Assembly: GCA_965223075.1 (NCBI GenBank)
Contig: OZ244986.1
Span: 3,204,462-3,268,461 of the forward strand
DNA length: 64,000 nucleotides
Direction of reading: 5' to 3'
From: Candidatus Marinacidobacterium sp.
GTDB taxonomy: Bacteria; Acidobacteriota; Vicinamibacteria; Marinacidobacterales; Marinacidobacteraceae
Below the pieces are notes generated by a model that saw only the letters and a program-made list of their open reading frames with translations, was not told the origin of the DNA and did no database searches. The translations under genes and the position numbers were made by a program. Positions 6,255 to 22,887 of this stretch are shown here, one piece after another. Position 1 is the first letter of the stretch, and every line of letters begins with the position of its first letter.

Positions 6255-6455
6255 GAACGCCGACCTACAAAAAGCGCGGGAACGGCTTGGAACGCCGACC
6301 GGGAAGAAGCGCGGGGACGGCTTGGAACGCCGACCTCCGGTCGGCACCGCGGCCGAAGGCCGCGAACGGCGTGCGGCCGATCGACAAGCACCGCGGGGAC
6401 GGCTTGGAACGGCGACTTCAGATCGGCACCGCGGCCGAAGGCCGGGCACGGCGCA
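6255..6455. repeat. Cluster of 3 REP-like repeat units
   Basis: Three tandem copies of ...AAGCGCGGGGACGGCTTGGAACGCCGACC(TCCGGTCGGC)ACCGCGGCCGAAGGCC... Confidence 0.8.
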
Positions 6456-6500
6456 CTGCCGGCCCGGCTGAAACGCGCGCCGGGTCTCGCTCGCGCTGAC

Positions 6501-6833
6501 TCAGGCGGAGACTTGAGCCTGTTCTCCGTCGGTGCCGTCGGGGCGGTCCACCAATTCGATCCGGAGATCCTTGTCGAGGACCGCCGCCGCGCGGCTCATG
6601 GAGAGGAGGGTGACCGAGCGGTTCTTCGGATTGAGGAGGCGGTCGAGGGCCGCCCGGCTGGTCCTCATTCGGGCTGCCATTTCGGAGTTGGTGAATCCCT
6701 TCTGCTCAATGGCCCGCCTCATCTGAAACGCCAGGACCCGCTTGACTGCGGTGGCCCGGGCTTCCGCGAGCGTGTCGTCTTCTTCGAGGAGCCCATCGAG
6801 TGAAGAGCCGATGTGGGGGTTGTTCTTGGACAT
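6501..6833 (-). CDS. XRE-family HTH antitoxin (HigA-like)
   Basis: 110 aa; HTH segment FTNSEMAARMRTSRAALDRLL; sits immediately downstream of the Gp49-like toxin gene; ATG at 6831-6833. Confidence 0.7.
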   Translation of the reverse strand: MSKNNPHIGSSLDGLLEEDDTLAEARATAVKRVLAFQMRRAIEQKGFTNSEMAARMRTSRAALDRLLNPKNRSVTLLSMSRAAAVLDKDLRIELVDRPDGTDGEQAQVSA

Positions 6834-6878
6834 TTGTAGAGGAGTATTAGGTTCAGTATCTTGAGAGCTGAGTAAACG

Positions 6879-7253
6879 TTACGCCATGTCAGCCCTCCGA
6901 GTCCGAGCGAGATCGAGATCGCGCTTGGGTATTTGATCGGCTTTCTTGAAGAAGCCATGCAGAAGGATCATTTGGGTCTCGTGAACGCAGAACAGGACTC
7001 GGGCGATCCGGTTTCGCAGGCTGCTTCGCGTTTCGAAGAGCCCGTCGCCGAGCGGTCTGCAGACGGGCATTCCGATTGGCCAGCCGTACTCCACGGTCTT
7101 GATGTCGGTGCCGATGACCACGCGATCGTGCTTGTCCAGCCCTCGCAGCCATTCCCGAACCGGTTCGATCCCGTTTGGGGACCGGTAGAACCGTGCCGGG
7201 ACTCGTTTCGAGGGACCATCGACCAACGACCGTATCATAAATGATACACTCAT
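6879..7253 (-). CDS. Gp49-like/RelE-ParE superfamily toxin (HigB-like; DUF891/PF05973-type)
   Basis: 124 aa; paired head-to-tail with the XRE antitoxin; HGFFKK motif typical of Gp49-like toxins; ATG at 7251-7253. Confidence 0.65.
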   Translation of the reverse strand: MSVSFMIRSLVDGPSKRVPARFYRSPNGIEPVREWLRGLDKHDRVVIGTDIKTVEYGWPIGMPVCRPLGDGLFETRSSLRNRIARVLFCVHETQMILLHGFFKKADQIPKRDLDLARTRRADMA

Positions 7254-7785
7254 CGCCCGCCGGCGGTGGGCGACACCGCGTGCGGCTGCTTGCTGGGATG
7301 GTGCGCCGGCACGGTACCGCCGACCTCCGGGTCAACGTCGGGCGGCTTGCGCGCGGCCTCTGCCTCGGTGTGGGCAGCGTGCGGCATGGGGAACTCCTCC
7401 GTGGAGATGTGGTCAGCGGAAGACCCGATGTCTTCCCCTATCCCCATAGACGAAATTCCGGCTCGTTTCTTCTCACCTGTCACGCGTGATGTGGAAAACT
7501 CGGCGTGAGACCGCCGCACGCCGGCGGGCGAGACGCACGGGCTCCATGCATCGAATAGCGCCCCGTCGGCACGGAGCGCCGGACCTAGGGTCGCCAGTCC
7601 GCGTCGGGAATAAACCGGGTCATGAAGTCCTCGAAGAGCGGGACGGTGAAGGCGGTGTCTCCGTGGCTGGGACTCCAGACCATTCCCTGCGCGATCAGCT
7701 TGCTTCGGGTCGGACCGAGGGCGGTGACCGGCCTGTCGAGGACTTGGGATGTCACCCGGCCGATGCGGCCGGGCGCCGAACTCAG

Positions 7786-7856
7786 TTATAACGATCTTAG
7801 AAGTTTTGTCAGATTTCGATAACCTCCAAATATCGCTATAAACCTCCACCGGGGTG
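7786..7856 (+). promoter_or_regulatory. AT-rich (~35% GC) segment about 210 bp upstream of the defence operon; putative promoter region
   Basis: The only strongly AT-rich stretch in the 7.2-8.1 kb non-coding gap: agttataacgatcttagaagttttgtcagatttcgataacctccaaatatcgctataaacc. Confidence 0.3.
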
Positions 7857-8064
7857 CGGCGCTGGCGCTTGTCGGAGTGGCCCGGCACCTCGGGCCGGAG
7901 GCAGGGAGTGACGGCATGCACACCGGCCTCGTAACGTGCGACCTGAGATGGCAAGGGACGCACGAGTAGCGGGTACCTAACCGTCGCAGATTGCCCGGCG
8001 CAAGCGACCGTGACCCCTTCGCGGTCCACTACGATCCCGTCCGCCTCGCGAGGCACTCATTCCA

Positions 8065-11000
8065 TTGAAATTCGAAGACCTTCACCTCGGCACGCGTTTG
8101 CGCGGAGTCACCCCCGGCGTGGTAACGGTCGTCCAGGCCGAGCTGCGTGGGGACACCGCTCTCAGCCTCACCTATAAGGACGAAGCCGGCGCCCTCCACG
8201 AGGTCCTGCTCTTCCGGGACGACGAATCACGCCTCGAACTCGCCGGTCCCTGCCCGATCCGTTCCTTCGCCGCCGACCCGAAACAGTTCCTCCTCGCGGC
8301 GGAGGCCGAGCGGATTCGCCTTGCCCATCTCTTCGATCCGTACCTCGCCGTCCACACCTCGAAGATCGAACCCCTGCCCCATCAGATCACTGCCGTCTAT
8401 GGCGCGATGCTCGACCGTCACCCTCTGCGCTTCCTCCTCGCTGACGACCCCGGCGCAGGAAAGACGATCATGGCCGGGCTTCTCATCAAGGAACTCGTGC
8501 TGCGGGGCGATCTGGAGCGCTGCCTGGTCGTCGCGCCGGGTTCGCTCGTCGAACAGTGGCAGGACGAACTCGGCGAGAAGTTCGATCTCGACTTTGCGAT
8601 CCTCAGTCGGGATCTGCTCGCCGCGTCTCGGAGCGGCGACCCCTTCTCCGAGCATCCCCGACTGATTGCCCGGCTCGACATGCTGAGCCGCGGCGAGGAT
8701 CTGCAGGACCTGATCCGAAGCGCCGAGGAATGGGACCTCGTGGTCTGCGACGAGGCGCACCGGATGTCGGCAAGTTTCTTCGGCGCCGAGGCGAAGTACA
8801 CGAAGCGGTACCAGCTCGGGCGTCTGCTCCGGGACCGGGCGCGCCACTTCCTGTTGATGACCGCAACGCCGCACAACGGCAAGGAAGAGGACTTCCAGCT
8901 TTTCCTCGCTCTCCTCGATCCGGATCGCTTCGAGGGCCGTTTCCGTCCCGGCGTGCACTCGAAGGATGCAAGCGACACGCTGCGTCGGCTGACCAAGGAA
9001 GAGCTCCGCCGCTTCGACGGGACCGCGCTCTTCCCCGAGCGCCGCGCCTACACCGCCCAGTACGAATTGAGTGAGCCGGAGACCACGCTCTACGAGGCGG
9101 TCACGCAGTACGTCCGTGAGGAGATGAACCGCGCCGAGCGGTTCGCCGCGACCGACGACCGCCGCCGGGTGAACGTGGGCTTCGCCCTGACGGTGCTGCA
9201 ACGCCGGCTCGCGTCTTCGCCGGCCGCGATCCACGAGAGCCTGAAGCGGCGGCTCGCGCGCATGGAGGATCGGTTGACGGCGATGCGGGAAGGTGTTCCG
9301 GCGCCGGCCCCCGCTCCCACTCTCGATCCGGATGACCTTGAGGAGGCGACAGAAGAGGAGATCGAGACAACCGAGGAGCGCGTGCTCGACCAGGCGACCG
9401 CCGCGGCCACCATGGAGGAGCTGGAGACGGAGATCGAGACGCTCCGGCGCCTGGAGAAACAGGCGCGGGCTCTGCGCCTCCGCAACACGGACACCAAGTG
9501 GCGCGAGTTGAACACCGTCCTCGACCACCCGCTGATGACCGCCGGGAACGGCCACCGGCGCAAGCTCATTGTCTTCACCGAACCCCGGGACACTCTCGAA
9601 TACCTCGCCGACCGGATTCGCACCCGGCTCGGAAGGCAGGATGCGGTGGTGGTGATCCACGGCGGCGTGTCGCGCGAGGCCCGGCGCGACGCGGTGGAAG
9701 CGTTCATGAACGACCCCGAGGTGGTCGTCATGGTGGCGAACGACGCGGCGGGCGAGGGCGTGAACCTGCAGCGCGCTCATCTGATGGTGAACTACGACTT
9801 GCCCTGGAACCCGAATCGGCTGGAACAGCGTTTCGGGCGCATCCACCGGATCGGCCAGACCGAGGTCTGTCACCTCTGGAATCTGGTGGCGAAGGACACT
9901 CGTGAAGGCGAGGTCTATGGGCGTCTGCTGGAGAAGCTCGATGTGGCGCGAAAGGCGCTCGGCGGCCGGGTGTATGACGTTCTCGGCCGCCTGTTCGAGG
10001 GCAAGGCCATGCGGGACCTGCTCCTCGACGCGATCCGCTACGGGGAGAGTCCGGAAGCCCGGAACCGTCTCTTCGAGAAGGTGGATCAGGCCGCCGCCAC
10101 GGAGCGGATCGGAGAGTTGCTCGCCGAACGCGCGCTGGTCCGCGAGCACCTGAGCCCGGCGACCGTCGCCGAGATCCGTGACCAGATGGCTCGGGCGAGT
10201 GCCCGGCGGCTGCAGCCGCACTTCATCCGCCGGTTCTTCCTGGAAGCCTTCCGGGCGCTTGGCGGCAGCGTCCATAGGCGCGAGAGCGGGCGGTTCGAGA
10301 TCGCGCGCGTCCCGACCGACATCCGCGACCGGCTGCCCAGGAACCTTCGTCCGGCGGTGCAGCCTCGTTACGAGCGGATCTGCTTCGAGCGGAAAGACGC
10401 GGCCGGTCCGCCGTTCGCGGCCTTCGTGTGCCCCGGCCATCCGCTGCTCGACCGGACGCTCGGTGCGATCCTCGACCGATCGAGGTCGGCCCTCGCCGAG
10501 GGCGCGGTGCTGGTGAACGAAACGGACGACCGTCCGGAGATACGCGCCGAATTTGCGGTGCGAACCGCCGTCACGGATGGCCGAAAGACGCGCTCGGGCT
10601 CGCGGCGCACCATCTCCGAGCGGCTCGCCTTCGTCGAACTGGACGCGAGTGGCCGGGTGGGGAACGGCGGCCCGGCGCCGCACCTCGATTGCCGGCCGAT
10701 CCGGGACGAGGAGCGGGCTCTCCTCGGAGACCGGTTGAGCGCGGAGTGGCTGGGCGGCGACGACGCGATCATGGACCATGCGGTCGGTGCGCTCGTGCCG
10801 GAACACCTCGGCGAAGTCCGGATGCGCCGGGTCGCCGAGATCGAAAAGACGCAACAACAGGTGTTCGAGCGTCTCTCCCGGGAACGGACCCACTGGGACA
10901 ACCGCGCCAACCAGCTCCGGGCGCGGGAGCGCGCGGGGAAGCAGGGCCGCATCGCAGCAGCGCAAGCAGCTCGACGCGCCGAGGAGCTCGACGCCCGCCT

Positions 11001-11532
11001 GGAGCGGAGGATGGCGGAACTGGACCGGGAGGGAGACATTGCAGCCGCGCCCCCGCAGGTCATCGGAGCCTCGCTCGTCGTCCCGGGTGGTCTGCTCCGC
11101 CGGCTCTCGGGTCCCGCGCCCTCCGAGGTCGCGAGCCCCGAGGGTCGGGCCGCCGTGGAGCAGATCGGGATGGCGGCTGTCATGGAGGCGGAACGCGGGC
11201 TCCGGCGGGAGCCGCGTGACGTGAGCGCCGAGAACCGGGGCTACGACATCGAGAGCCGCGACCCGGCGACCGGGCGGCTGCGCTTCATCGAGGTCAAGGG
11301 GAGGCGCGCCGACGCGACCACGGTCACGGTGACCCGCAACGAGACCGCTGTCGCCCTGAACTCACTCGACCAGTCCCACGACTACATCCTCGCCATTGTG
11401 CTCGTCGAGCAGGGGTACGCCCGGCGCACCGCCTACGTAACCGACCCGTTCCGCGCCGGCGTGGACGACACCACCGAAGCAGTCACCCACAACCTGAAGA
11501 GGCTGTTGGCGCGTTCGCAGCAACCGACCTGA
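8065..11532 (+). CDS. SNF2-family helicase with C-terminal DUF3883 (restriction-endonuclease-like) domain
   Basis: ATP-binding DDPGAGKT, DEAH box VVCDEAHRM, helicase-C motif RFGRIHRIGQ, C-terminal GYDIESRD...RFIEVKGR...HDYILAIVLV (DUF3883 pattern); TTG start at 8065 with no in-frame ATG upstream. Confidence 0.9.
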   Translation: MKFEDLHLGTRLRGVTPGVVTVVQAELRGDTALSLTYKDEAGALHEVLLFRDDESRLELAGPCPIRSFAADPKQFLLAAEAERIRLAHLFDPYLAVHTSKIEPLPHQITAVYGAMLDRHPLRFLLADDPGAGKTIMAGLLIKELVLRGDLERCLVVAPGSLVEQWQDELGEKFDLDFAILSRDLLAASRSGDPFSEHPRLIARLDMLSRGEDLQDLIRSAEEWDLVVCDEAHRMSASFFGAEAKYTKRYQLGRLLRDRARHFLLMTATPHNGKEEDFQLFLALLDPDRFEGRFRPGVHSKDASDTLRRLTKEELRRFDGTALFPERRAYTAQYELSEPETTLYEAVTQYVREEMNRAERFAATDDRRRVNVGFALTVLQRRLASSPAAIHESLKRRLARMEDRLTAMREGVPAPAPAPTLDPDDLEEATEEEIETTEERVLDQATAAATMEELETEIETLRRLEKQARALRLRNTDTKWRELNTVLDHPLMTAGNGHRRKLIVFTEPRDTLEYLADRIRTRLGRQDAVVVIHGGVSREARRDAVEAFMNDPEVVVMVANDAAGEGVNLQRAHLMVNYDLPWNPNRLEQRFGRIHRIGQTEVCHLWNLVAKDTREGEVYGRLLEKLDVARKALGGRVYDVLGRLFEGKAMRDLLLDAIRYGESPEARNRLFEKVDQAAATERIGELLAERALVREHLSPATVAEIRDQMARASARRLQPHFIRRFFLEAFRALGGSVHRRESGRFEIARVPTDIRDRLPRNLRPAVQPRYERICFERKDAAGPPFAAFVCPGHPLLDRTLGAILDRSRSALAEGAVLVNETDDRPEIRAEFAVRTAVTDGRKTRSGSRRTISERLAFVELDASGRVGNGGPAPHLDCRPIRDEERALLGDRLSAEWLGGDDAIMDHAVGALVPEHLGEVRMRRVAEIEKTQQQVFERLSRERTHWDNRANQLRARERAGKQGRIAAAQAARRAEELDARLERRMAELDREGDIAAAPPQVIGASLVVPGGLLRRLSGPAPSEVASPEGRAAVEQIGMAAVMEAERGLRREPRDVSAENRGYDIESRDPATGRLRFIEVKGRRADATTVTVTRNETAVALNSLDQSHDYILAIVLVEQGYARRTAYVTDPFRAGVDDTTEAVTHNLKRLLARSQQPT

Positions 11533-11666
11533 GTGACAGGCATCGAACGCCCGAACCTCCCAATCCACGCCCGAAAACCGCCCGGGAGCGCCTTTTGCCG
11601 GAGATATACTGCCGATCCGATGAGGACTTGGCCCTCCTGAGTTCAGCCCTGACGGAAGGGAGATCC

Positions 11667-12314
11667 ATGACGCGCGCCGAAATCGTCCTGGCGGCTATGG
11701 CTGCGGGGGGACGGGGCGTGTCCTATGACGGTCTCCGCATTCAGAAACTCCTGTTCCTGATTGATGTCGAGATATCGGACTTGTTGGAAGGACCGTATTT
11801 CGACTTCGCAGCCTACAACTATGGTCCGTTCGACAAGAGCCTCTACGAAGTACTTGGGGACCTGGAGCGTCGCGGAAACGTTGCGCAGGGACACGAGAAC
11901 GGTTATGCGGACTATTCCCTGACCTCGGAGGGCAGCGTGGAGGGCGGGCGCGTCCTGGGGACGCTTTCCCCAGAGGCGCGTCAGTTCATGGAGAGCGCGG
12001 CGAAGTGGCTCCGGCTGAGCACATTTCGTCGTATCCTGACCGTGATTTATCTCAAGTACCCCGAGATGGCCCGAAACAGCGTCGTGCCTGAACTCAAGGC
12101 TCCTTCGTTCCGGGCGGCGCACCGTTTCGTCCTCCCGTCATTCCTTTCAGGCGTCTCGCGCATCTTCGATTTCACCGGCAGCCTCGATCCACCCATCTAC
12201 CAGGAGCCGCCTGAGCAGGCGGATGCGATGGCCATTCGTCAGGATTGGGAGGCGGTCGGGGACGATCTCGAGCACGCGCTCGCGGCCTTCGGTCCGCCAG
12301 AGCCTGCACGGTGA
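11667..12314 (+). CDS. Panacea (DUF4065)-domain protein, putative antitoxin-type partner
   Basis: LRIQKLLFLIDVE...YNYGPFDKSLYEVL matches the Panacea KLQKLLYxAQ...YGPVxxxVY pattern; ATG at 11667 with AAGGGAG SD; GC ~58%, lower than flanks. Confidence 0.6.
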   Translation: MTRAEIVLAAMAAGGRGVSYDGLRIQKLLFLIDVEISDLLEGPYFDFAAYNYGPFDKSLYEVLGDLERRGNVAQGHENGYADYSLTSEGSVEGGRVLGTLSPEARQFMESAAKWLRLSTFRRILTVIYLKYPEMARNSVVPELKAPSFRAAHRFVLPSFLSGVSRIFDFTGSLDPPIYQEPPEQADAMAIRQDWEAVGDDLEHALAAFGPPEPAR

Positions 12315-12423
12315 CGAAGCGCCGGAACTCGCGCGCGAAGTCGCCTCCCGTCCGGAGATCGGTGGCGGCTGTTGTGGACCTGCCGCGTCCATCCAGCCAT
12401 CGGGCGAATGGAGAGATCGGAGC

Positions 12424-13272
12424 ATGAAGGCAAGTAACGGAATTGCCCGAAGTGCCCGAGCAGTATTCGTGGTTCACGGGCGCAATACCGAGGTGCGCGA
12501 CGCGATGTTCGAGTTTCTTCGCGCCGTTGATTTGCGTCCGATTGAGTGGTCAGAGGCGATCACGGGTACTGGCAGGCCGACCCCATCAATCCCTGAGATT
12601 CTGAGAGCCGCGTTTGCTCGGGCACGAGCCGTGGTCGTCCTGTTGACACCAGACGACAAGGCGGTGCTGAGAGAGCGATACTGGAAGGAAGGTGACCCGG
12701 ACGGCGAGCGCCGACCGTCAGGGCAAGCACGACCCAATGTGCTGTTCGAAGCCGGGATGGCCATGGCCTTCAAGCCAGAACGCACGATTCTCGTGCAGTT
12801 TGGAAGTTTGAGACCCTTTAGCGATATTGGCGGACTTCATGTCGTTCGCTTTCGTAATGACAGCCAGACGCGCCAGAACATCGCATCGAGGCTGGAGACG
12901 GCAGGTTGCCCGGTGAATCTGGCTGGTACGGATTGGCACACCGCGGGTGACTTCAATGATGCCGTGATGGACGACGACGAGGAGTCGTTCGACGAACAAG
13001 CGCCACAAGCCACTGGATGGCGGGAAGTTTCTGACTTCTCGGAACTCTCTGAGAACGCCAGGAGTGCGCTGCAGACAATGGCTGGTACGGATGCACCCTT
13101 AGTCAAATTCGCAAGTCTTGCTGATACTCGATTCCTCGTTGGCAGACGGTCCTTCTCCCCTCGAGTGTTTGAAGAGATGCTGGAAGCAAACTTGATTCGC
13201 GATGAGTCCGGAGAGGGAAAACGGTTCATATTGACCCACGCTGGATATCAGGCTGCCGATGGCCTCCAATAG
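12424..13272 (+). CDS. TIR-like domain protein (PF10137 'predicted nucleotide-binding protein containing TIR-like domain') with ~130-aa C-terminal extension
   Basis: AVFVVHGRN...AVVVLLTPDD...ARPNVLFEAGMAMA...RTILVQFG matches the PF10137 motif order (VFIVHGhD / LLTPDD / RPNVxFExGyf); ATG at 12424 with GGAGAG SD; GC ~55%. Confidence 0.6.
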   Translation: MKASNGIARSARAVFVVHGRNTEVRDAMFEFLRAVDLRPIEWSEAITGTGRPTPSIPEILRAAFARARAVVVLLTPDDKAVLRERYWKEGDPDGERRPSGQARPNVLFEAGMAMAFKPERTILVQFGSLRPFSDIGGLHVVRFRNDSQTRQNIASRLETAGCPVNLAGTDWHTAGDFNDAVMDDDEESFDEQAPQATGWREVSDFSELSENARSALQTMAGTDAPLVKFASLADTRFLVGRRSFSPRVFEEMLEANLIRDESGEGKRFILTHAGYQAADGLQ

Positions 13273-13292
13273 CTGTCAGGTGTGACGCGCTG

Positions 13293-16169
13293 GTGACAAC
13301 AGCCGAGCTCCGGACCGTCCCGAAGCTCATCGAGGTGGCGCTGCCGCTTGATGACATCAACCGGGCGGCGGCGCGGGAGAAGTCCATCCGACACGGCCAC
13401 CCGAGTACGCTGCATCTCTGGTGGGCGCGGCGTCCCCTGGCGGCGGCGCGAGCGGTGCTGTTCGCGCAACTGGTGGACGATCCGTCGGGGCGGCCGGAAC
13501 TCTTCCCGACCGAGGCGGAGCAGGACCGCGAGCGCGAGCGGCTATTCGGGATCCTGCGGAAGCTGGTGCTCTGGGAGAACACCACGAACGAGGAGGTCCT
13601 CGAAGCGGCGCGGGCGGAGATCCGGGAGTCGTGGCGCCGGACGTGCGCCGACAACGCGGACCACCCGCGGGCGGTGGAGCTCTTCGACCCGGAGAAGCTG
13701 CCGGCGTTCCATGACCCGTTTGCCGGGGGCGGCGCCATCCCGCTCGAGGCGCAGCGGCTCGGGCTGGAGGCGCACGCGAGCGACCTGAACCCGGTCGCGG
13801 TGCTCATCAACAAGGCGATGATCGAAATTCCGCCCCGGTTCGCGGGAAGGCCGCCGGTGAACCCGGAGGCGCGGGCGCGGAAGTCGGTGGCCGGACGGGA
13901 GTGGCGCGGGGCGGCGGGGCTCGCCGAGGACGTGCGCTACTACGGGAAGTGGATGCGGGACGAGGCGGAACGGCGGATCGGGCATCTCTACCCGAAGGCG
14001 CGCATCACGCCGGAGATGGTGGCGGACCGGCCGGACCTGGAGCGCTACAAGGGTCGGGACCTGACCGTGATCGCGTGGCTCTGGGCGCGGACGGTGCCGA
14101 GCCCCAACCCGGCGTTTTCGCACGTCCAGGTTCCGCTGGTTTCGACGTTCATGCTCTCGACGAAGAAGGGGAAGGAGGCGTACGTGGAGCCGGTGGTGGA
14201 GGGCGACTCTTTCCGGTTCGAGGTCCGGGTGGGAACGCCGCCGGATTTCGGAGCCTCGGAAAGAGGTACGAGCGCTGGAAAACGCAGTGGATTCCGATGT
14301 CTGATGTCCGGCTCGCCGATTACCTTCAATCACGTTCGCGTTGAGGGACGGGAGGGGCGGATCGGACAGCGACTCATGGCAGTCGTCGCGGCAGGCGATC
14401 GAAGTCGAATCTATCTGCCCCCCGCGGTGGTGCAACAAACGACGGTCAGCGAAACACCTTGGAATCCCGACGTTCGCTTGGAAGGCAAGTGTCGAGTCAA
14501 CGTCTCGAACTATGGCTTCGACGTTTACAGAGACCTCTTTACGTCGCGGCAGCTCGTCGCTCTGACGAATTTGTCTGACCTTGTCAGTGAGGCGGTGAAG
14601 CGAGCGCGTGCGGACGCGGCACAATCTTATCTGCCCGCCGACGACCGACCACTGGCCGAAGGCGGCACCGGCCCCTGCGCCTATGCCGAGGCGGTTGGGG
14701 TGTATCTCGGTTTGTCTGTCAGCCGGACGACCAACACCATCAATGCCCATACAGTTTGGTCTAAGGGTAGAGGACAGACCGTGAATCTGTTCAGCCGGCA
14801 GGCTATACCAATGACTTGGGATTTCCCCGAGGCGAGTCCCTTCTCGCGAGCGGCGGGTGACTTCGCCATGACTACGGATTCGGTAAGTAAAGTGCTCACT
14901 TACGTCTCAAGAGGCTTTGGAACTGCGGCGCAAGAAGACGCGCAGACACAAGTCAGATCGGTCTTGCGGATCGTCTCAACGGACCCGCCGTACTACGACA
15001 ACGTTGCCTATGCGGACCTGTCAGATTTCTTCTATGTGTGGCAACGGAGGACTCTTCGTCAGACTTACCCTGACATATTCGCCACGGTGTCAGTGCCCAA
15101 AGCCGACGAGCTAGTGGCGACCCCGTACCGTCACGCCAGCAAGCAAGCTGCAGAGACATTCTTCCTTAGGGGAATGACTCGGGCACTCCGGCGACTCTCA
15201 GAACAACCTCATGGTGCATTTCCGATCACCGTCTACTACGCGTTCAAACAGTCAGAAACGAAAACCGGAACCAGAACGGTGAGCACGGGTTGGGAGACGT
15301 TCTTGGACGCCGTTATCCGATCCGGATTCGCGATCTCCGGAACATGGCCAATGCGTACTGAAAGGCCGACGGGCGTAAAGGTTGCTTTCAACGCACTCGC
15401 GTCAAGCATCGTTCTCGCGTGTCGAAGACGACTCCCCAATGCGCCCTCGACTACCCGGCGCAGTTTCCTGGCTGCTCTCCACACGGAACTTCCAGAAGCC
15501 ATCACTCGCCTCCAGGACGAAAACATCGCGCCGGTAGATCTCGCGCAGGCCGCCATCGGCCCCGGCATGGCGATCTTCACCCGCTACTCGCGCGTCCTCG
15601 AAGCCGACGACTCCCCGATGACCGTTCGCATGGCCCTCGCCCTCATCAATGCGGAACTCGACCAGATCCTCTCCGCTCAGGACGCCGACTACGATCCCTG
15701 GACCCGCTTCGCGGTCACCTGGTTCGAGACGAAGGGCATGGACCCCGGCCCCTACGGTGACGCTGAGACCCTCGCCACCGCCCGCGGCGTGGCGGTCGAA
15801 GGCGTCGTCCACGCTGGCATCCTGAAGGCGACCGCCGGCCAGGCCCGCCTACTCCGCCGGGACGAACTCGATCCCGGCTGGTCCCCCGAAACCGACGACC
15901 GCCTCACTGTCTGGGAGTGCGCACAGCACGTCGCCCGCCGCCACGAAGACGGCGGCGAGATGTCCGCCGCCGCGCTGGTCGCCCGCCTCGGCGACCGCGC
16001 CGCCGCCGCCCACGCCCTCGCCTATCGCCTCTACGGCATCTGCGACCGGAAGAAACTCGCCGAAGAAGCCCTCGTCTGGAACGAACTCGTCCAACTCTGG
16101 CCCCGCCTCACTGAACTAGCCCCTACCGCCACCGCCCCGCGCCCCCAAGACCTTCTCAGCAGTAAATGA
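13293..16169 (+). CDS. DUF1156 (COG1743) Zn-ribbon-type adenine-specific DNA methyltransferase
   Basis: N-terminal LIEVALPLDDINRAAAREKSIRHGHPSTLHLWWARRP is the DUF1156 signature; DPPY catalytic motif (STDPPYYDNVAY); GTG start; the central ~1.2 kb has distinctly lower GC. Confidence 0.85.
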   Translation: MTTAELRTVPKLIEVALPLDDINRAAAREKSIRHGHPSTLHLWWARRPLAAARAVLFAQLVDDPSGRPELFPTEAEQDRERERLFGILRKLVLWENTTNEEVLEAARAEIRESWRRTCADNADHPRAVELFDPEKLPAFHDPFAGGGAIPLEAQRLGLEAHASDLNPVAVLINKAMIEIPPRFAGRPPVNPEARARKSVAGREWRGAAGLAEDVRYYGKWMRDEAERRIGHLYPKARITPEMVADRPDLERYKGRDLTVIAWLWARTVPSPNPAFSHVQVPLVSTFMLSTKKGKEAYVEPVVEGDSFRFEVRVGTPPDFGASERGTSAGKRSGFRCLMSGSPITFNHVRVEGREGRIGQRLMAVVAAGDRSRIYLPPAVVQQTTVSETPWNPDVRLEGKCRVNVSNYGFDVYRDLFTSRQLVALTNLSDLVSEAVKRARADAAQSYLPADDRPLAEGGTGPCAYAEAVGVYLGLSVSRTTNTINAHTVWSKGRGQTVNLFSRQAIPMTWDFPEASPFSRAAGDFAMTTDSVSKVLTYVSRGFGTAAQEDAQTQVRSVLRIVSTDPPYYDNVAYADLSDFFYVWQRRTLRQTYPDIFATVSVPKADELVATPYRHASKQAAETFFLRGMTRALRRLSEQPHGAFPITVYYAFKQSETKTGTRTVSTGWETFLDAVIRSGFAISGTWPMRTERPTGVKVAFNALASSIVLACRRRLPNAPSTTRRSFLAALHTELPEAITRLQDENIAPVDLAQAAIGPGMAIFTRYSRVLEADDSPMTVRMALALINAELDQILSAQDADYDPWTRFAVTWFETKGMDPGPYGDAETLATARGVAVEGVVHAGILKATAGQARLLRRDELDPGWSPETDDRLTVWECAQHVARRHEDGGEMSAAALVARLGDRAAAAHALAYRLYGICDRKKLAEEALVWNELVQLWPRLTELAPTATAPRPQDLLSSK

Positions 16170-16350
16170 GGATCCGGTTCTTGAACCCACCACCCGCTGA
16201 TCCGGCATTCTGGTGGGCCTCCGGACGCCGCGGCGCGGCGGAGTCCGTCCGGCCGAAGGGCGACTTGAGATCGCTTTTTTCGTCCATGGCTGCTGCGAGC
16301 GGTCGTTGAACGCCACGTCCTTAAATCATCAGACCATGGCCTAATGATCA

Positions 16351-17577
16351 ATGAGGGTCTCTCACGCAGTGAACACGACAGAAAAACGAGACGGTTTCTT
16401 CGCTCGCAGAGTCGCAGCGCTCTGTCAGGAAATAGAGAAGTGGGCACGCGCAAATGACCTATGGCATGACTGTGGGTTCTTCGACTATCTGGAGCGAGTA
16501 GATCCACTTCGGTGGGACGACACCGCGTACGCGGTGGTTTTGGCTGCAGAAGGCGACTTTGCCCGAGTGATCTTTGCCCGTGATTACTGGGCCGCAGATG
16601 GAGAGCGTGACTTACCGGAAGAGTTTGACCAAATCTTGCAAAGACACGGCTTTTGGTATGAACAATACGATCACACAGAAATGTGGATCTACCCTAACGG
16701 AAACTCGCTAGAGGCGGAATTCAGAGAGCACTTACGTTGGAAGTGGATATGCAATCTGATAAAACCCGACTTCGACTTGCTGAATGAGGAGCTATACGAT
16801 CACTTCGGAAAGACGCCTGATCGGCTACAGGCGTTGGACTGGCGAGACTTCGAGAAACTCGTTGCTGCCTTGTTGGAGTCTCAAGGGTACGAAGTGGAAC
16901 TTGGCCCAGGGAGCAACGATGGGGGCGTAGACATAAGGCTTCTTCAGAGGGATCCAGTTGGGGATATTCTGACTTTGGTTCAGGTCAAGCGGTACAGAAC
17001 TGATCGGCGAATACGGCTTGATGCTGTGCAGGCCCTACACGGAGCTATGACGGCGGAAGGTGCCCCCCGGAGCATGTTCGTTACAACATCCGAATATGCG
17101 GTGAGTGCACGAAAATTCGCGAATCGACACAATGTACCGATGACGTTCCATACGTCGGATGATGTTCAGCAGTGGTGCAGGGATGCCCATAACGGCATCG
17201 TGGAGGACAAGAGGACCCTCGTGTCCGAAAAAAATATCGCCAAGATTATCGAGAAAGCGCAGACAGACCACCGGCAAGTGCTTCACAGTCAAGGTGGCTA
17301 CAGTATGACAATGAACACGTTTGCCGTAGTACTAAAGGCGACGCGTACCTCCGCGCTGCTGTTGGAACTTCCGACACGGACGACCGAACATGACGGGTAC
17401 GGACAGCGAGGCCGCGAAGTGCCTGACTTGGGTCCAGCGCTGCCGCTTTCGCACCTTCGTGGAAACGAGATACGGAGGGCAAGAAGGACACCAGGCAGTG
17501 CTGGGACGTTCTGGGATGGTCATAGACGGTATGCGCCTTGGGGTGGCAAGCCCGTCCATTTCGACTACATGGATTGA
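16351..17577 (+). CDS. Mrr-like restriction endonuclease (Mrr_cat PD-(D/E)xK domain) with ~150-aa unknown N-domain
   Basis: FEKLVAALLESQGYEVELGPGSNDGGVDIRLL...LVQVKRY matches the Mrr catalytic core; GC ~52% versus ~70% flanks; AT-rich upstream (ttaaatcatcagacc); the 3' ~280 nt return to high GC and low-complexity translation, so the true stop is uncertain. Confidence 0.6.
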   Translation: MRVSHAVNTTEKRDGFFARRVAALCQEIEKWARANDLWHDCGFFDYLERVDPLRWDDTAYAVVLAAEGDFARVIFARDYWAADGERDLPEEFDQILQRHGFWYEQYDHTEMWIYPNGNSLEAEFREHLRWKWICNLIKPDFDLLNEELYDHFGKTPDRLQALDWRDFEKLVAALLESQGYEVELGPGSNDGGVDIRLLQRDPVGDILTLVQVKRYRTDRRIRLDAVQALHGAMTAEGAPRSMFVTTSEYAVSARKFANRHNVPMTFHTSDDVQQWCRDAHNGIVEDKRTLVSEKNIAKIIEKAQTDHRQVLHSQGGYSMTMNTFAVVLKATRTSALLLELPTRTTEHDGYGQRGREVPDLGPALPLSHLRGNEIRRARRTPGSAGTFWDGHRRYAPWGGKPVHFDYMD

Positions 17578-17750
17578 CTTGCGGATTCAGCGTCCGGACC
17601 TGGGCGCGGTTTTCGCCCTTTGCGATGCTGGCGATGCCGAGCTGGAGGTCGGCGGTCTCTTGGCTGTCCCGTCACCCTCGTTGACCGGCGTTCCCCCCTC
17701 GAGCATGCCCGGCTTGGCCGGGGTACCGGGAGCGGGTACGCTGGCGTGAA

Positions 17751-21032
<3,282 letters not shown>

Positions 21033-21045
21033 GGGAGGAAAACCG

Positions 21046-21321
21046 ATGCGCGGTGTGCTGATCGAGATTGGCCAGAGGGCCGCCGATTTCGTCCGGATGG
21101 CGCTGCGCCAGGTCCTCCTTCGGCGGCGGGAGCCGTCCGCGGTGCGGCTCCCGAATGCGGAAACCATTGCGGCGTTGAACGAGCCTACGCACAGCCTGAA
21201 GCGGTTCGATTCGGTGGAGGATCTGTTCGCGGACATCAAGGCCGGTACGTCCGGTTCGCGGGCCGGAGCGGGGAGAACTGCGCGAAACCCCCACGGGAAA
21301 AACATCTGTGGTGGGTGCTGA
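21046..21321 (+). CDS. DinJ/RelB-like antitoxin-fold small protein
   Basis: ADFVRMALRQVLL...PNAETIAALNE...DSVEDLFADI parallels E. coli DinJ (SDLVRITLTKV...PNQLTIQSIKN...DADDLFDKL); GGGAGG SD 8 nt upstream of the ATG; begins 14 nt after the DUF499 stop. Confidence 0.5.
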   Translation: MRGVLIEIGQRAADFVRMALRQVLLRRREPSAVRLPNAETIAALNEPTHSLKRFDSVEDLFADIKAGTSGSRAGAGRTARNPHGKNICGGC

Positions 21322-21787
21322 ACGGGCCAGCCTGATTCTGGTGGGATGCGTCAAACGCAAGCGCAGTCAGTCATGTGCCGCCCGGGACCTTTACGATGAG
21401 TCGCCGCTCTGGCGCGGCCGACGGGCATACGCCGAACGCTCCGGCGCGCCCTGGTACATCCTGAGCGCCAAACACGGTCTGTTGGCCCCGAACGCCTGGA
21501 TCGGACCGTATGACCTGGCGCTGAAGCACCTCAAGCGGGAAGAACGCCGAGACTGGTCGCGGAACGTGCTCGACGAACTCCGCGCCCGGTTCCCGACGCT
21601 CACTGGCAAGATGGTGGAGTGCCACGCAGGCAAGGACTATTTGGAAAACGGGCTGGAGGAGGGGCTGCGGAAAGCGGGCGCCGTCGTCCGCCGACCCCTG
21701 GCAGGTGTGGGAATCGGCGTCCAACTCCGTTGGTACCGCGTGCAGTCAGACGCATCCGGCGCCGGAGGGAGAAAGAGAGATGGCTGA
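21308..21787 (+). CDS. Small conserved protein, DUF6884-like (tentative)
   Basis: LILVGCVKRKR...ARDLY...WYILSAKHGLL...PYDL resembles the SCSxxK / ILSAKYGL pattern of DUF6884-type proteins; GTG start overlapping the DinJ-like stop by 14 nt. Confidence 0.45.
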   Translation: MVGAERASLILVGCVKRKRSQSCAARDLYDESPLWRGRRAYAERSGAPWYILSAKHGLLAPNAWIGPYDLALKHLKREERRDWSRNVLDELRARFPTLTGKMVECHAGKDYLENGLEEGLRKAGAVVRRPLAGVGIGVQLRWYRVQSDASGAGGRKRDG

Positions 21788-22682
21788 TGCGGCCCGGCTG
21801 GCGGAGTTGATCAGCGAGGACTTCTACGGAGGTAACCTGGACTTCAACACGAGGAAGCCCGGGAGCGATGACTGGTCGAACCTGCCGGAAGTCGAGGCGA
21901 CGGACAGGATGCCGCCGACGGACGCGGCAGTCGCCACCGATGGGCTCCGCGATGACCATGTGACCGGACGGACAGTGCGTTTGTTCCTGACCTTTGTCGC
22001 GGCGGTGGACAAGATGCGGGATGCGACGCAACTGTGGCGCGCGGCGGGCAATCTGTTCCGGACGAACCCGGAAGTCTTCGACCCTGCGGTCGTGTCCTCC
22101 ATGTCGTTGGAGACGCTGCGGAAACTGCTCTCCAACAGCCGCGTGACCCGGTACCCCGATCGGCAAGCCCGGGCTTGGCGGACGATTGCCGCGAGTCTCT
22201 CCGCACGGAACGGTCCGGTGTGCCGGGTGGTGGATTCGGGCTATGGAGATGCCGCGGAATTGCTCAAGGACGTCCGGAGCCGCGACCGACACGGCCAGAC
22301 GCGATTCCCGGAGCTTCGCGGCGACAAGATCAGACTGATGTGGATTCGGATGATGGCGGAGCCGGGCAAAGCGCGCATTCGCCGTCTGGACACCGTTCCG
22401 GTCGCGGTGGATGTGCAGGTTCGCCGCGTGACCGAGAACTTGGGCGTGACCGATACCCGCGGCCCGGCACTCAACAACAGGATCAAGAAGGAGATTCAGA
22501 ACGCTTGGTCTGCCGCCGTCGCCAATGCCCGGATCGGCGGTCCAGAACGCATCGCCGGGACCTGCTCGGCGCTCGATCCGGCGCTCTGGTTCTACGGCAA
22601 ACACGGCTGCAGCCACTGCGAAAGCGCGAAACGACAGGTCCGCTTTGGCCGGGCCTGCGACTCTTGCCGGTTTCAGATTTAG
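21780..22682 (+). CDS. HhH-GPD (endonuclease III-like) DNA glycosylase-like protein with C-terminal Cys4 cluster
   Basis: VAVDVQVRRVTENLG parallels EndoIII VDTHVFRV around the catalytic Asp; C-terminal C-x2-C-x12-C-x2-C; ATG at 21780 overlapping the upstream stop by 8 nt, with SD GGAGGGAG. Confidence 0.45.
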   Translation: MADAARLAELISEDFYGGNLDFNTRKPGSDDWSNLPEVEATDRMPPTDAAVATDGLRDDHVTGRTVRLFLTFVAAVDKMRDATQLWRAAGNLFRTNPEVFDPAVVSSMSLETLRKLLSNSRVTRYPDRQARAWRTIAASLSARNGPVCRVVDSGYGDAAELLKDVRSRDRHGQTRFPELRGDKIRLMWIRMMAEPGKARIRRLDTVPVAVDVQVRRVTENLGVTDTRGPALNNRIKKEIQNAWSAAVANARIGGPERIAGTCSALDPALWFYGKHGCSHCESAKRQVRFGRACDSCRFQI

Positions 22683-22740
22683 GTGCCATCGGGGTGGGCG
22701 CGATACGCCCCGATCCCGGCTGATGCGCCATCCATTCCAG

Positions 22741-22887
22741 TAGCGATTCGCGGTTTCGCCCGCCTTCGGCGCGCGATGCCGGCCGGAGGCCGGCGTTCCA
22801 AGCCGTCCCCGCGCTTCTTCACAATCGGGGGGACGCGGTTTCGCGGCCCTCCGGGCCGCGGTGCCGGTGTGAACACCGGCGTTCCCT
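22741..22887. repeat. REP-like repeat units in minus orientation
   Basis: GCCGGCCGGAGGCCGGCGTTCCAAGCCGTCCCCGCGCTTCTTC and GCCGGTGTGAACACCGGCGTTCCC hairpins. Confidence 0.8.

Follow-up and report, generated by a model that had tools for sequence, protein, structure and literature searches.

Nine genes run in the same direction at 8065-22682 on the plus strand of the window, the 64,000-nucleotide stretch of Candidatus Marinacidobacterium sp. contig OZ244986.1 analysed here. The question this locus raises is whether the run encodes one composite immune machine or a known defence system that carries unrelated passengers. All nine ORFs were confirmed in place; no gap between them exceeds 181 nt, and none contains a consensus terminator-like site. 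Likely true starts were assigned at ATG 11667, 12424, 21046 and 21780, where in each case a GGAG-type ribosome-binding site lies upstream; for the first of these genes the mechanical ORF begins at TTG 11595. The locus is very likely an intact Hma system at a chromosomal defence hot spot, whose two inter-gene slots, like the stretch behind its last gene, are occupied by independently mobile defence cassettes. The features are collected in Table 1.

Table 1. Annotated features of the Hma locus and its left edge, in window coordinates.
Feature	Position	Strand	Description
REP-like repeat	6259..6457	+	~82 nt, three tandem copies; island left edge
HigB/HigA-like toxin-antitoxin pair	6501..7253	-	Gp49 gene 6879-7253, HTH_37 gene 6501-6833
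AAA_16/AAA_22 ATPase gene remnant	7588..7773	-	last 62 codons only
hmaA	8065..11532	+	Swi2/Snf2 helicase with C-terminal NOV_C (DUF3883) PD-(D/E)XK nuclease; 1155 aa
Slot 1 gene 1	11667..12314	+	antitoxin-like, DarG C-terminal-domain-like / distant Panacea-like, winged helix; 215 aa
Slot 1 gene 2	12424..13272	+	CAP12/Pycsar-type TIR-domain protein; 282 aa
hmaB	13293..16169	+	DUF1156 N6-adenine-type DNA methyltransferase; 958 aa
hmaB hypervariable target-recognition region (predicted)	14103..14972	+	aa 271-560
Slot 2 gene	16351..17577	+	Mrr-like PD-(D/E)XK restriction endonuclease; 408 aa
hmaC	17751..21032	+	N-terminal Swt1-type HEPN (nt 17781-18119) fused to DUF499 AAA+ ATPase; 1093 aa
t1	21046..21321	+	small protein faintly resembling RelB/DinJ; 91 aa (start ATG 21046)
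t2	21308..21787	+	DUF6884 protein, YaaA-like 'cantaloupe' fold; 159 aa
t3	21780..22682	+	putative HhH-GPD DNA-glycosylase-fold protein, C-terminal four-Cys site; 300 aa

The sequence-only reading had proposed a defence operon built on an SNF2-DUF3883 helicase, a DUF1156 methylase and a HEPN-DUF499 ATPase. Pfam and PADLOC searches found all of these domains and motifs, and the PADLOC models for HmaA, HmaB and HmaC all matched, with 1462, 1402 and 1010 bits, respectively. The HmaA match spans the full length of the protein; Pfam detects SNF2-rel_dom (1.1e-14), Helicase_C (1.3e-20) and NOV_C, formerly DUF3883 (2e-19 at aa 1031-1115), and the motifs are GAGKT at 130, DEAH at 229 and E1076-x-K1078. 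HmaB has the DUF1156 domain (3.6e-31), FAGGG at 143 and DPPY at 564. In HmaC, HEPN_Swt1 lies at aa 11-123 (1e-33) together with DUF499 (7.4e-22), RNAFAH at 94-99 and GGGKT at 247; the PADLOC match covers aa 165-1091. These catalytic motifs are invariant across 50-82 related loci from many phyla: K133, DEAH229-232, E1076, K1078 and E1093 of HmaA in 50-64 loci, FAGGG143 and DPPY564 of HmaB in 82, and R94 and H99 of HmaC in 64 of 64, with GGGKT in 62 of 62. The copy in the window is well preserved.

The triad is the already catalogued Hma system, named by Payne et al. 2021 (PMC8565338; PADLOC), and equally the HEPN-fused variant of the Type-1 DUF499-centred BREX-related (BR) class of Rakesh and Krishnan 2026 (PMC12839542), whose published description its Pfam domains follow domain for domain. 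The HEPN domain is fused in 1370 of 2446 taxa, and helicase and nuclease are fused in 79%. DUF3780, which was among the families earlier listed for checking, was absent by Pfam profile search; it marks the Type-2 sister system. Nor is the triad uncharacterised and without mechanistic work, as had been supposed: in addition to its naming, there is a study of the nickase activity and T4 defence of a Halomonas HmaA (PMC11232893), and the mechanism of the sister system MANTIS has been reconstituted.

The predicted mosaic of lower-GC pieces was borne out. GC3 is 0.85-0.88 in hmaA and hmaC vs 0.73 in the Panacea-like gene, 0.62 in the TIR gene and 0.58 in the Mrr gene. The interior of hmaB, at about 14.1-15.6 kb, has an overall GC of 0.54-0.64. 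By sequence comparison, this low-GC middle is the predicted hypervariable target-recognition region of HmaB, which it encloses: aa 271-560 are 41-65% identical to homologues, whereas aa 1-270 are 85-95% identical to the 11 closest ones and aa 771-958 are 71-96% identical. The blastn match to the related locus L002 is interrupted at 14246-14531. A fast-evolving region between highly conserved ends is a signature of sequence-specific self-marking.

The first gene of slot 1 encodes an antitoxin-like protein whose score against Pfam SocA_Panacea (E=0.052, 14.9 bits) is below the 25.7 cut-off; in its family, 6 of 45 members match PF13274, the best at 2.8e-5. PADLOC matches it to DarG (7.4e-6) and weakly to PDC-M19A (7.2e-8), and the top PDB match of its AF2 model is 7yk3_B, the DarG chain of the M. 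tuberculosis DarTG complex (E=5e-5), a modest match with a TM of about 0.45. The partner gene of this antitoxin-like gene differs between loci. Panacea systems have been described as combining a hyper-promiscuous antitoxin with swapped toxins; a TIR partner is not known to have been reported for them. The adjoining TIR protein matches PF10137 (2.1e-26, 92.7 bits) and PDC-S35 (2.2e-17), has a putative catalytic Glu109 within an LFEAG motif, and shares its TIR core with 4265 cluster representatives; its C-terminal domain had no family match. The antitoxin-like protein probably restrains the TIR NADase, the two forming a toxin-antitoxin-like abortive-infection pair. The Mrr-like protein in slot 2 has Mrr_cat at aa 159-276 (3e-29, Pfam), with D193 in GGVDI at 191 and Q211-x-K213 in VQVKR at 210, and matches PDC-S02 (5.7e-15) and the type IV mREase model (1.6e-9) in PADLOC. 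Phage DNA whose modification lets it evade a methylation-based system is its probable target.

The three-gene tail that had been noted is real, its genes overlapping by 14 and 8 nt. For t1, the profile matches are RelB_DinJ (0.0034) and RelB (0.034), and the related locus L003 has a counterpart, an 81-aa gene after hmaC whose product is 54% identical. The t2 protein matches PF21818 (1.7e-42, Pfam) and PDC-M57A (6e-28, PADLOC), and its CVKRK at 14 and LSAKHG at 52 fit the family motifs CxxxK and LSAxxG; DNA binding and base flipping have been proposed for DUF6884 proteins. No Pfam family or PADLOC model matched t3. Judged by its AF2 model (pLDDT 86), t3 is a new HhH-GPD glycosylase-like protein; K183, D211, C277 and C280 are invariant among homologues, and C293 and C296 are kept in 49 of 50. 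Many t3 homologues are single-chain fusions with DUF6884, so that t2 and t3 would constitute a separate module. This module is found among housekeeping genes too, and thus a role in repair rather than defence is possible.

In close relatives, the island site lies between MacAB-like and RND efflux operons and holds other cassettes, swapped at gene boundaries. L001 has the same flanks (81-86% nucleotide identity) and the same hmaB-Mrr-hmaC block (89.5%), with the Mrr protein 88% identical; its slot 1 holds four other genes, and the tail is missing through a clean 1723-bp indel corresponding to 21033-22755. L002 shares hmaA and the antitoxin-like gene up to nt 12403, after which DUF2335 and a 108-aa gene replace TIR; two other genes replace Mrr. 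The same efflux flanks recur in L083 and L089, where no intact Hma lies between them. L083 retains the antitoxin-like gene (93% aa identity) and a 281-bp hmaA remnant, and L089 retains t3 (89%).

These comparisons bear on the sequence-only reading that the locus is a hybrid, in which HmaABC has recruited the TIR, Mrr and tail proteins as effector or sensor subunits of a single machine. This reading comes near Rakesh and Krishnan's notion of an 'auxiliary and backup effector', and nucleases in BR loci have been proposed as back-up effectors; it agrees with the co-directional, closely spaced layout without terminator-like sites, with the published finding that 96.7% of embedded genes match the orientation of the host system, and with the retention of Mrr beside hmaB and hmaC in L001. 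We nevertheless consider it unlikely. The cassettes differ between relatives whose hmaA, hmaB and hmaC are 84-93% alike, and at this chromosomal site the antitoxin-like gene and t3 are retained even where Hma is not intact; this swapping and persistence argue that the inserts are independent passengers, not parts of a hybrid machine. When the insert proteins were compared with 79 more distant Hma loci (tblastn, E<=1e-5), no significant match was found except one weak 44-bit TIR match, in L047. TIR, Mrr, DUF6884 and, weakly, the antitoxin-like protein match PDC families, which are by definition stand-alone candidate systems discovered through embedding. The locus is also not the departure from a textbook arrangement that had been suggested, because embedded cassettes are the usual state for Hma: they occur in 62.7% and 66.5% of Hma loci in published surveys, and in our 79-locus survey 45 of 53 hmaA-hmaB gaps exceed 400 bp. 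With the inserts taken as passengers, their co-orientation and short gaps are compatible with co-regulation or functional cross-talk with Hma, which may occur.

The HigB/HigA-like pair (Gp49 4.3e-18, HTH_37 4.2e-6) is outside the operon and within the same variable island; it is shared with L083 and missing from L001. The AAA remnant corresponds to residues 336-396 of a 396-aa L089 protein (88.7% identity, tblastn). A 268-aa ORF at 7250-8056 that overlaps the remnant had no family match; its translation is Arg/Pro/Ser-rich and does not resemble a real protein. Of the REP-like repeat (repeats D1, D2 and I1-I3), about 1.5 inverted copies lie at 22749-22873, the right edge of the island. The element is dispersed, with 9 copies in the window vs 0 expected.

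With regard to mechanism, HmaB would mark host DNA as self by methylating adenine within a short motif that its central hypervariable region recognises. By analogy with MANTIS (MtsA and MtsC), HmaC, an AAA+ ATPase of the ORC/Cdc6 type, probably serves to load HmaB onto DNA or activate it there, and to detect unmodified sites. This would in turn license the Snf2 translocase HmaA to use its C-terminal PD-(D/E)XK domain for nicking or cutting foreign DNA that is unmodified, and the HEPN domain of HmaC is a probable back-up RNase. No test of the full three-protein Type-1 mechanism was found in the searchable literature. The NOV_C nickase of Halomonas HmaA confers protection against T4, and HmaA by itself lowered T4 propagation (PMC11232893); T4 raised in a host that overexpressed HmaB was restricted in the same way as wild-type T4. 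Among hmaA loci, 14.7% are without hmaB and 19.3% without hmaC. Protection by HmaA alone, the lack of shielding by HmaB and the incomplete loci weaken a simple restriction-modification model, and all three fit an abortive or dormancy defence centred on HmaA, in which the helicase-nickase suffices and HmaB and HmaC are dispensable regulators. We regard such a defence as very improbable here, since the motifs of HmaB and HmaC do not vary across 62-82 loci, the HmaB target-recognition region evolves fast between conserved ends, and the Type-2 system requires its DUF499 ATPase for methylation and methylation for self/non-self discrimination. T4 is moreover a poor test of protection by adenine methylation because its DNA is glucosyl-hydroxymethylated.

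Among known systems, MANTIS (Gao_RL), the Type-2 BR sister, is probably the best mechanistic template by analogy. It likewise combines a DUF499 AAA+ ATPase, a DUF1156-type N6-adenine methyltransferase and an SF2 helicase-nuclease; the ATPase-loaded enzyme hemimethylates asymmetric sites, and the helicase-nuclease restricts unmodified DNA (bioRxiv 10.64898/2026.09.23.753747). However, MANTIS has an HKD/PLD nuclease and a small DUF3780/MtsB protein, whereas the locus has PD-(D/E)XK, no DUF3780 and an extra HEPN; NCBIfam Type-2 models scored far below cut-off (162 vs 1200, 95 vs 1000 and 184 vs 1100). Type-3 BREX (BrxC, PglXI, BrxHII) has a homologous ATPase, methylase and helicase (PADLOC BrxHII 2e-98), and its architecture and that of Type-1 BR have been described as parallel, but the locus is without PglZ, BrxA, BrxB and BrxF, its methylase has a DUF1156 N-terminus, and its helicase carries a nuclease predicted from sequence to be active. 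For the inserts, BrxU/GmrSD in the pEFER BREX, a modification-dependent nuclease nested in a methylation-based system, is a precedent for the Mrr-like gene; like the Hma-embedded candidates (HEC/PDC, Payne et al. 2024), it is a stand-alone defence gene nested in the same orientation, although the Mrr-like enzyme is of the PD-(D/E)XK type, not GmrSD. The TIR domain is N-terminal here, yet aligns to the C-terminal part of PDC-S35 profiles. The slot 1 pair resembles PanAT and DarTG in having a small protein like a toxin-binding antitoxin immediately ahead of a partner that varies (TIR here; DUF2335 and others elsewhere), but has no macrodomain or DarT, and its Panacea score is below the Pfam threshold. 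With Hma itself the agreement is closest: the three proteins are identical in kind, order and orientation and match the HmaA, HmaB and HmaC models over their full length; they are Snf2 with a C-terminal PD-(D/E)XK, a DUF1156 N6-methyltransferase with an internal target-recognition region, and HEPN-DUF499. Both slots hold embedded genes, as is the case for the majority of Hma loci. The locus differs from Hma only in its passenger set and chromosomal setting.

Nine consecutive ORFs, all on the + strand, occupy positions 8065-22682, and profile searches bore out every domain assignment that had been made by eye (SNF2/DUF3883, DUF1156, HEPN-DUF499, TIR and Mrr). The lower-GC pieces and the three-gene tail described by the sequence-only reading are also real: GC3 is 0.85-0.88 in hmaA and hmaC and 0.73, 0.62 and 0.58 in the genes of the two slots between the core genes, and the methylase gene has a central stretch where overall GC drops to 0.54-0.64. 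The sole adjustment concerned four start codons, which were re-placed at the ATGs at 11667, 12424, 21046 and 21780, each preceded by a GGAG-type ribosome-binding site.

Features of the locus and its borders (L001, L083, L084 and L089 are related loci used for comparison; t1 to t3 are the tail proteins in gene order)
Feature	Position	Strand	Content
HigB/HigA-like toxin-antitoxin pair	6501-7253	-	Gp49 family and HTH_37; just upstream of hmaA; in L083, absent from L001
AAA_16/AAA_22 ATPase remnant, last 62 codons	7588-7773	-	88.7% aa identity; gene intact at the site in L089, L083 and L084
hmaA ORF (helicase)	8065-11532	+	SNF2-related, Helicase_C, NOV_C (formerly DUF3883, 2e-19); GAGKT 130, DEAH 229, E1076-x-K1078
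Slot 1	11667-12314 and 12424-13272, between helicase and methylase	+	215-aa protein; 282-aa CAP12/Pycsar-type TIR protein, PF10137 2.1e-26
hmaB ORF (methylase)	13293-16169	+	DUF1156 3.6e-31; FAGGG 143 (motif I), DPPY 564
Slot 2	16351-17577, between methylase and ATPase	+	408-aa Mrr_cat protein, 3e-29
hmaC ORF (ATPase)	17751-21032	+	HEPN_Swt1 1e-33 (RNAFAH 94-99) fused to DUF499; GGGKT 247
Tail	21046-21321, 21308-21787 and 21780-22682, 3' of the ATPase	+	91-aa protein (t1); DUF6884 protein, 1.7e-42 (t2); 300-aa protein without family (t3)
~82-nt repeat, island left edge	6259-6457		three tandem copies
~82-nt repeat, island right edge	22749-22873		~1.5 copies, inverted
~82-nt repeat, other copies	near 340, 30948, 58443, 60023 and 61626		

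The core genes belong to Hma ('helicase, methylase, ATPase'), a system that received its name in 2021, based on 1,638 three-gene operons in 26 phyla (PMC8565338), and re-described in 2026 as the Type-1 DUF499-centred BREX-related system (Type-1 BR), with earlier sightings traced to 2013 and 2020 (PMC12839542). The PADLOC models for HmaA, HmaB and HmaC matched at 1462, 1402 and 1010 bits, near full-length. The PADLOC rule for Hma specifies a match of each of the three proteins to its HMM, a single strand, no more than three genes embedded between neighbours, and absence of pseudogenes; here all genes are on the + strand, slot 1 holds two genes and slot 2 a single one, and the ORFs and motifs are intact. 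In Type-1 BR systems the ATPase is HEPN-fused in 1370 of 2446 taxa, the helicase is fused to PD-(D/E)XK in 79%, and the DUF1156 N6-methyltransferase carries an internal target-recognition insert (PMC12839542). Judged by their predicted domains, the window proteins match this published description domain for domain. The helicase is of the Swi2/Snf2 type with a C-terminal PD-(D/E)XK domain, whose E1076, K1078 and E1093 are invariant; the methylase has a DUF1156 N-terminus and a variable region (residues 271-560) between motif I and DPPY; and the ATPase carries both HEPN_Swt1 and DUF499. In the profile searches no ORF of the locus matched DUF3780 or a PLD domain; DUF3780 had been among the families listed for checking, and the other listed domains were present. 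With the HmaA, HmaB and HmaC matches and the inserted slot genes, the view of the locus as a mosaic defence operon holds.

The statement that the system had no mechanistic characterisation is outdated for the family, given the work on Halomonas HmaA and on the Type-2 system MANTIS, and is still partly true for this exact type. Halomonas HmaA alone lowered T4 propagation, an effect that needed D1084, E1104, K1106 and E1121 of its NOV_C domain, and the isolated domain nicked supercoiled DNA (PMC11232893). Three of the residues mutated there, E1104, K1106 and E1121, correspond to E1076, K1078 and E1093 of the window HmaA. A literature search found no test of the complete Type-1 trio.

The embedded genes were considered against published surveys and our own. 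In the survey by Payne et al., 931 of 1,485 Hma systems (62.7%) contained embedded genes, and 96.7% of embedded genes shared the orientation of their host system. Embedding was then used to predict defence candidates; seven of nine tested Hma-embedded candidates were active, and 145 more (the PDCs, candidate defence models in PADLOC) were left untested. Liu et al. reported insertions in 66.5% and termed the operon a defence-gene insertion hot spot. Three inserts of the window match candidates from the embedding study: the TIR protein (PDC-S35), the Mrr-like protein (PDC-S02) and the DUF6884 protein (PDC-M57A). For our survey, 79 loci were retrieved with the methylase alignment. Of the 52 loci in which all three genes were seen, 44 had them in the order hmaA-hmaB-hmaC on a single strand; gaps of more than 400 bp separated hmaA from hmaB in 45 of 53 and hmaB from hmaC in 23 of 53, and every hmaC of the sample had the HEPN domain. 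Invariant in this sample were K133, DEAH and the three C-terminal residues of HmaA, FxGxG and DPPY of HmaB, R94 and H99 of the HEPN domain, and GGGKT of HmaC. The few organism-named relatives (methylase and t3 homologues, 64-75% identity) were labelled as Acidobacteria or Gemmatimonadetes MAGs. The sequence-only reading had set the arrangement apart from a textbook locus; at the published frequencies such embedding is typical. Thus the embellishments are the normal state of Hma loci, and the locus is a named, catalogued system with typical mosaicism.

The methylase is itself unevenly conserved when segments of 14 homologues are compared with the window HmaB. Identity over residues 1-270 is 76-95% (85-95% in the 11 closest), and over residues 771-958 it is 71-96% in the 11 closest and about 48% in the three most distant. 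It is 52-65% over residues 271-400 in all except the nearest relative, and 41-58% over residues 401-560, except for the three closest relatives at 75-91%. In the related locus L002, the second half of the variable region is 86% identical and the first half 62%, and the blastn match is interrupted at 14246-14531. The variable region occupies the published position of the target-recognition insert (PMC12839542). A putative recombining specificity module is the best reading of this low-GC central part of the methylase gene. The region is not a recent acquisition, since it is common to L001 at 91-94% nt identity.

The first gene of slot 1 had been called Panacea, a label that fits loosely: PF13274 scores 14.9 bits against a cut-off of 25.7 (E=0.052) on the 215-aa protein and matches 6 of its 45 relatives, the best at 2.8e-5. 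Three approaches, namely the PADLOC DarG model, profile searching of the PDB and Foldseek with the AF2 model, all lead to the DarG chain of the M. tuberculosis DarTG complex, which is the closest fold (7yk3_B, E=5e-5 in Foldseek). Downstream of this gene lies TIR in the window and DUF2335 in L002, L086 and L088; L083 and L085 have yet other partners. The most economical reading is that the antitoxin-like protein would restrain a variable toxin. In the TIR protein, the conserved Glu of this very large family (4265 cluster representatives) is E109 in LFEAG. No cyclase (CD-NTase or pyrimidine) was matched in the nine-gene locus or its immediate flanks, and PADLOC PycTIR reached just 1.6e-5; because no cyclase gene lies nearby, the TIR protein is not part of CBASS or Pycsar. 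A protein of the DarG-C-terminal/Panacea kind may restrain a CAP12-type TIR NADase; in sister loci DUF2335 or other proteins take the place of this partner, the swap falling at a fixed junction (nt 12403). If true, the pair would extend the promiscuous-antitoxin idea to TIR effectors. A search for a structured recombination site at the cassette junction (12315-12403) found none (fold z-score 0.76). Many longer relatives of the TIR protein (P0365-P0395 and similar, ~400-415 aa) have the TIR and C-terminal domains in common with it, and an extra N-terminal domain of ~125 aa, without Pfam match, that it lacks. Homology of this extra domain to the antitoxin-like protein was rejected (hhalign probability 3%).

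The slot 2 protein is predicted from its catalytic core to be a restriction endonuclease of the Mrr type (type IV), with an Mrr_cat PD-(D/E)XK domain at 101.9 bits against a cut-off of 21. In the tail, the DUF6884 protein carries CxxxK and LSAxxG motifs and bears a faint resemblance to DpdC, a component of the Dpd system for modifying DNA with 7-deazaguanine derivatives. Its neighbour t3, for which there is no PADLOC model, has an HhH-GPD fold in which the conserved catalytic Asp follows the helix-hairpin-helix; K183, D211, C277 and C280 do not vary, and 49 of 50 sequences also have C293 and C296. Among its closest folds is the queuosine-nucleotide glycosylase QNG1, and many of its homologues are DUF6884-t3 fusion proteins. 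The DUF6884 protein and the four-Cys HhH-GPD enzyme may form a base-flipping and base-excision pair recognising modified bases in foreign DNA. From the QNG1 fold and the DpdC likeness, a restriction glycosylase acting against 7-deazaguanine-type or other hypermodified phage DNA is conceivable. The pair is also found among housekeeping genes in L093-L095, and in L092 it adjoins an N6_N4 methylase and a ResIII protein. In the latter (8001-15490), a 461-aa DUF6884-t3 fusion lies directly upstream of the methyltransferase (913 aa) and the ResIII-type protein (1045 aa), making this the second restriction-modification-like pair with which the module is associated. In L089 (7144-7998) a 284-aa protein with a faint DUF429 match precedes t3, replacing DUF6884, and t3-like domains among the homologues are also fused to PF24718, PF21748 and PF01817 N-terminal domains. 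Thus the glycosylase-like domain has variable partners.

The island is flanked by a MacAB-type ABC efflux operon and an RND efflux operon, and close relatives fill this site differently. L001 has the same flanks (81-86% nt identity), an hmaA at 85% and a methylase 95% identical; its slot 1 holds four unrelated genes, and the tail is absent as a clean 1723-bp indel at 21033-22755. The hmaB-Mrr-hmaC block (window 13313-21032) is 89.5% identical in nucleotides, higher than the surrounding efflux genes, which hints that the block was exchanged more recently between the two lineages. L002 has hmaA and the 215-aa gene in common with the window (7981-12403, 89%); DUF2335 and a 108-aa gene replace TIR, two other genes replace Mrr, and the tail is missing. 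In L003, slot 1 is filled by an AAA_21 cassette and slot 2 by a DUF1828 cassette; its hmaC and tail match the window at 87.6% up to its contig end. L083 and L084 have the ABC-efflux flank but lack an intact Hma: 281 bp of the hmaA 3' end and the 215-aa gene (93% aa) are left, amid AAA ATPase genes and a Vsr/Dcm pair. The remnant in L083 (4049-4329, 83.7% nt identity, annotated as a 69-aa gene) is evidence that Hma was lost or replaced at the hot spot. In L089 both efflux flanks are present, together with an AAA_16 ATPase gene, the different 284-aa partner and t3 at 89% aa, and its homology to the window begins exactly at the t3 start codon. From these differing fillings, the locus is one state of a rapidly turning-over defence island, and its inserts behave as independent modules. 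To the sequence-only reading the arrangement had looked like a hybrid or evolving immune system; cassettes that differ among close relatives at one site favour independent passengers.

At the borders of the island, a 268-aa ORF (7250-8056, - strand) is unlikely to be a gene: no family matches it, its translation is rich in Arg, Pro and Ser, and it overlaps the AAA_16 remnant. A REP-like intergenic repeat of ~82 nt is present in nine copies in the 64-kb window against none expected, and also in L001 and L089. Inverted copies as island-specific ends were rejected, the repeat being a dispersed genome-wide element. An Rfam scan of 5.5-23.5 kb gave no match.

The locus does not change the overall picture, because the core system and its embedding have already been described. 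Its value rests on the natural series of different fillings that one hot spot shows, and on two little-understood passenger modules. Four or five close relatives with Hma and other cassettes, Hma without the tail, or Hma remnants only amount to a natural experiment, with ready-made 'with and without' constructs for testing the independence of the embedded genes from Hma. The locus could also help to settle the Type-1 mechanism, namely the methylation motif and the roles of the DUF499 ATPase and the HEPN domain. It is rather unlikely, in our estimate, that both pairs are undescribed two-part modules, one an antitoxin-like protein checking a TIR NADase and the other a DUF6884 and four-Cys HhH-GPD base-excision pair. 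These two poorly understood pairs are reasonable candidates for functional testing.

Membership in other known systems was also considered. DISARM (DrmA, DrmB and DrmC with DrmD or DrmMI/II) gave sub-threshold matches on hmaA alone (DrmD 388 bits against a cut-off of 610); its PADLOC models for DrmD and DrmA scored far below the HmaA model, and the other components are absent. MADS was not equated with the triad, because papers list Hma and MADS as separate systems. Type-2 BR (MANTIS) is marked by DUF3780 (MtsB) and an HKD/PLD helicase-nuclease, whereas the window locus lacks DUF3780; with the Type-2 NCBIfam equivalog models, whose cut-offs are 1200, 1000 and 1100 bits, its proteins scored 162, 95 and 184 bits, and membership was rejected. 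MANTIS is a reconstituted Type-2 system: once the DUF499 ATPase and a small co-factor have loaded it, the methyltransferase hemimethylates asymmetric 6-bp sites, and DNA left unmodified is restricted by the helicase-nuclease (bioRxiv 10.64898/2026.09.23.753747). BREX itself (the alkaline-phosphatase-like PglZ with BrxC and PglX) was set aside, no PglZ being found in the nine ORFs or the flanking genes. The position of the Mrr-like protein parallels that of BrxU in BREX, a modification-dependent nuclease within a methylation-based system.
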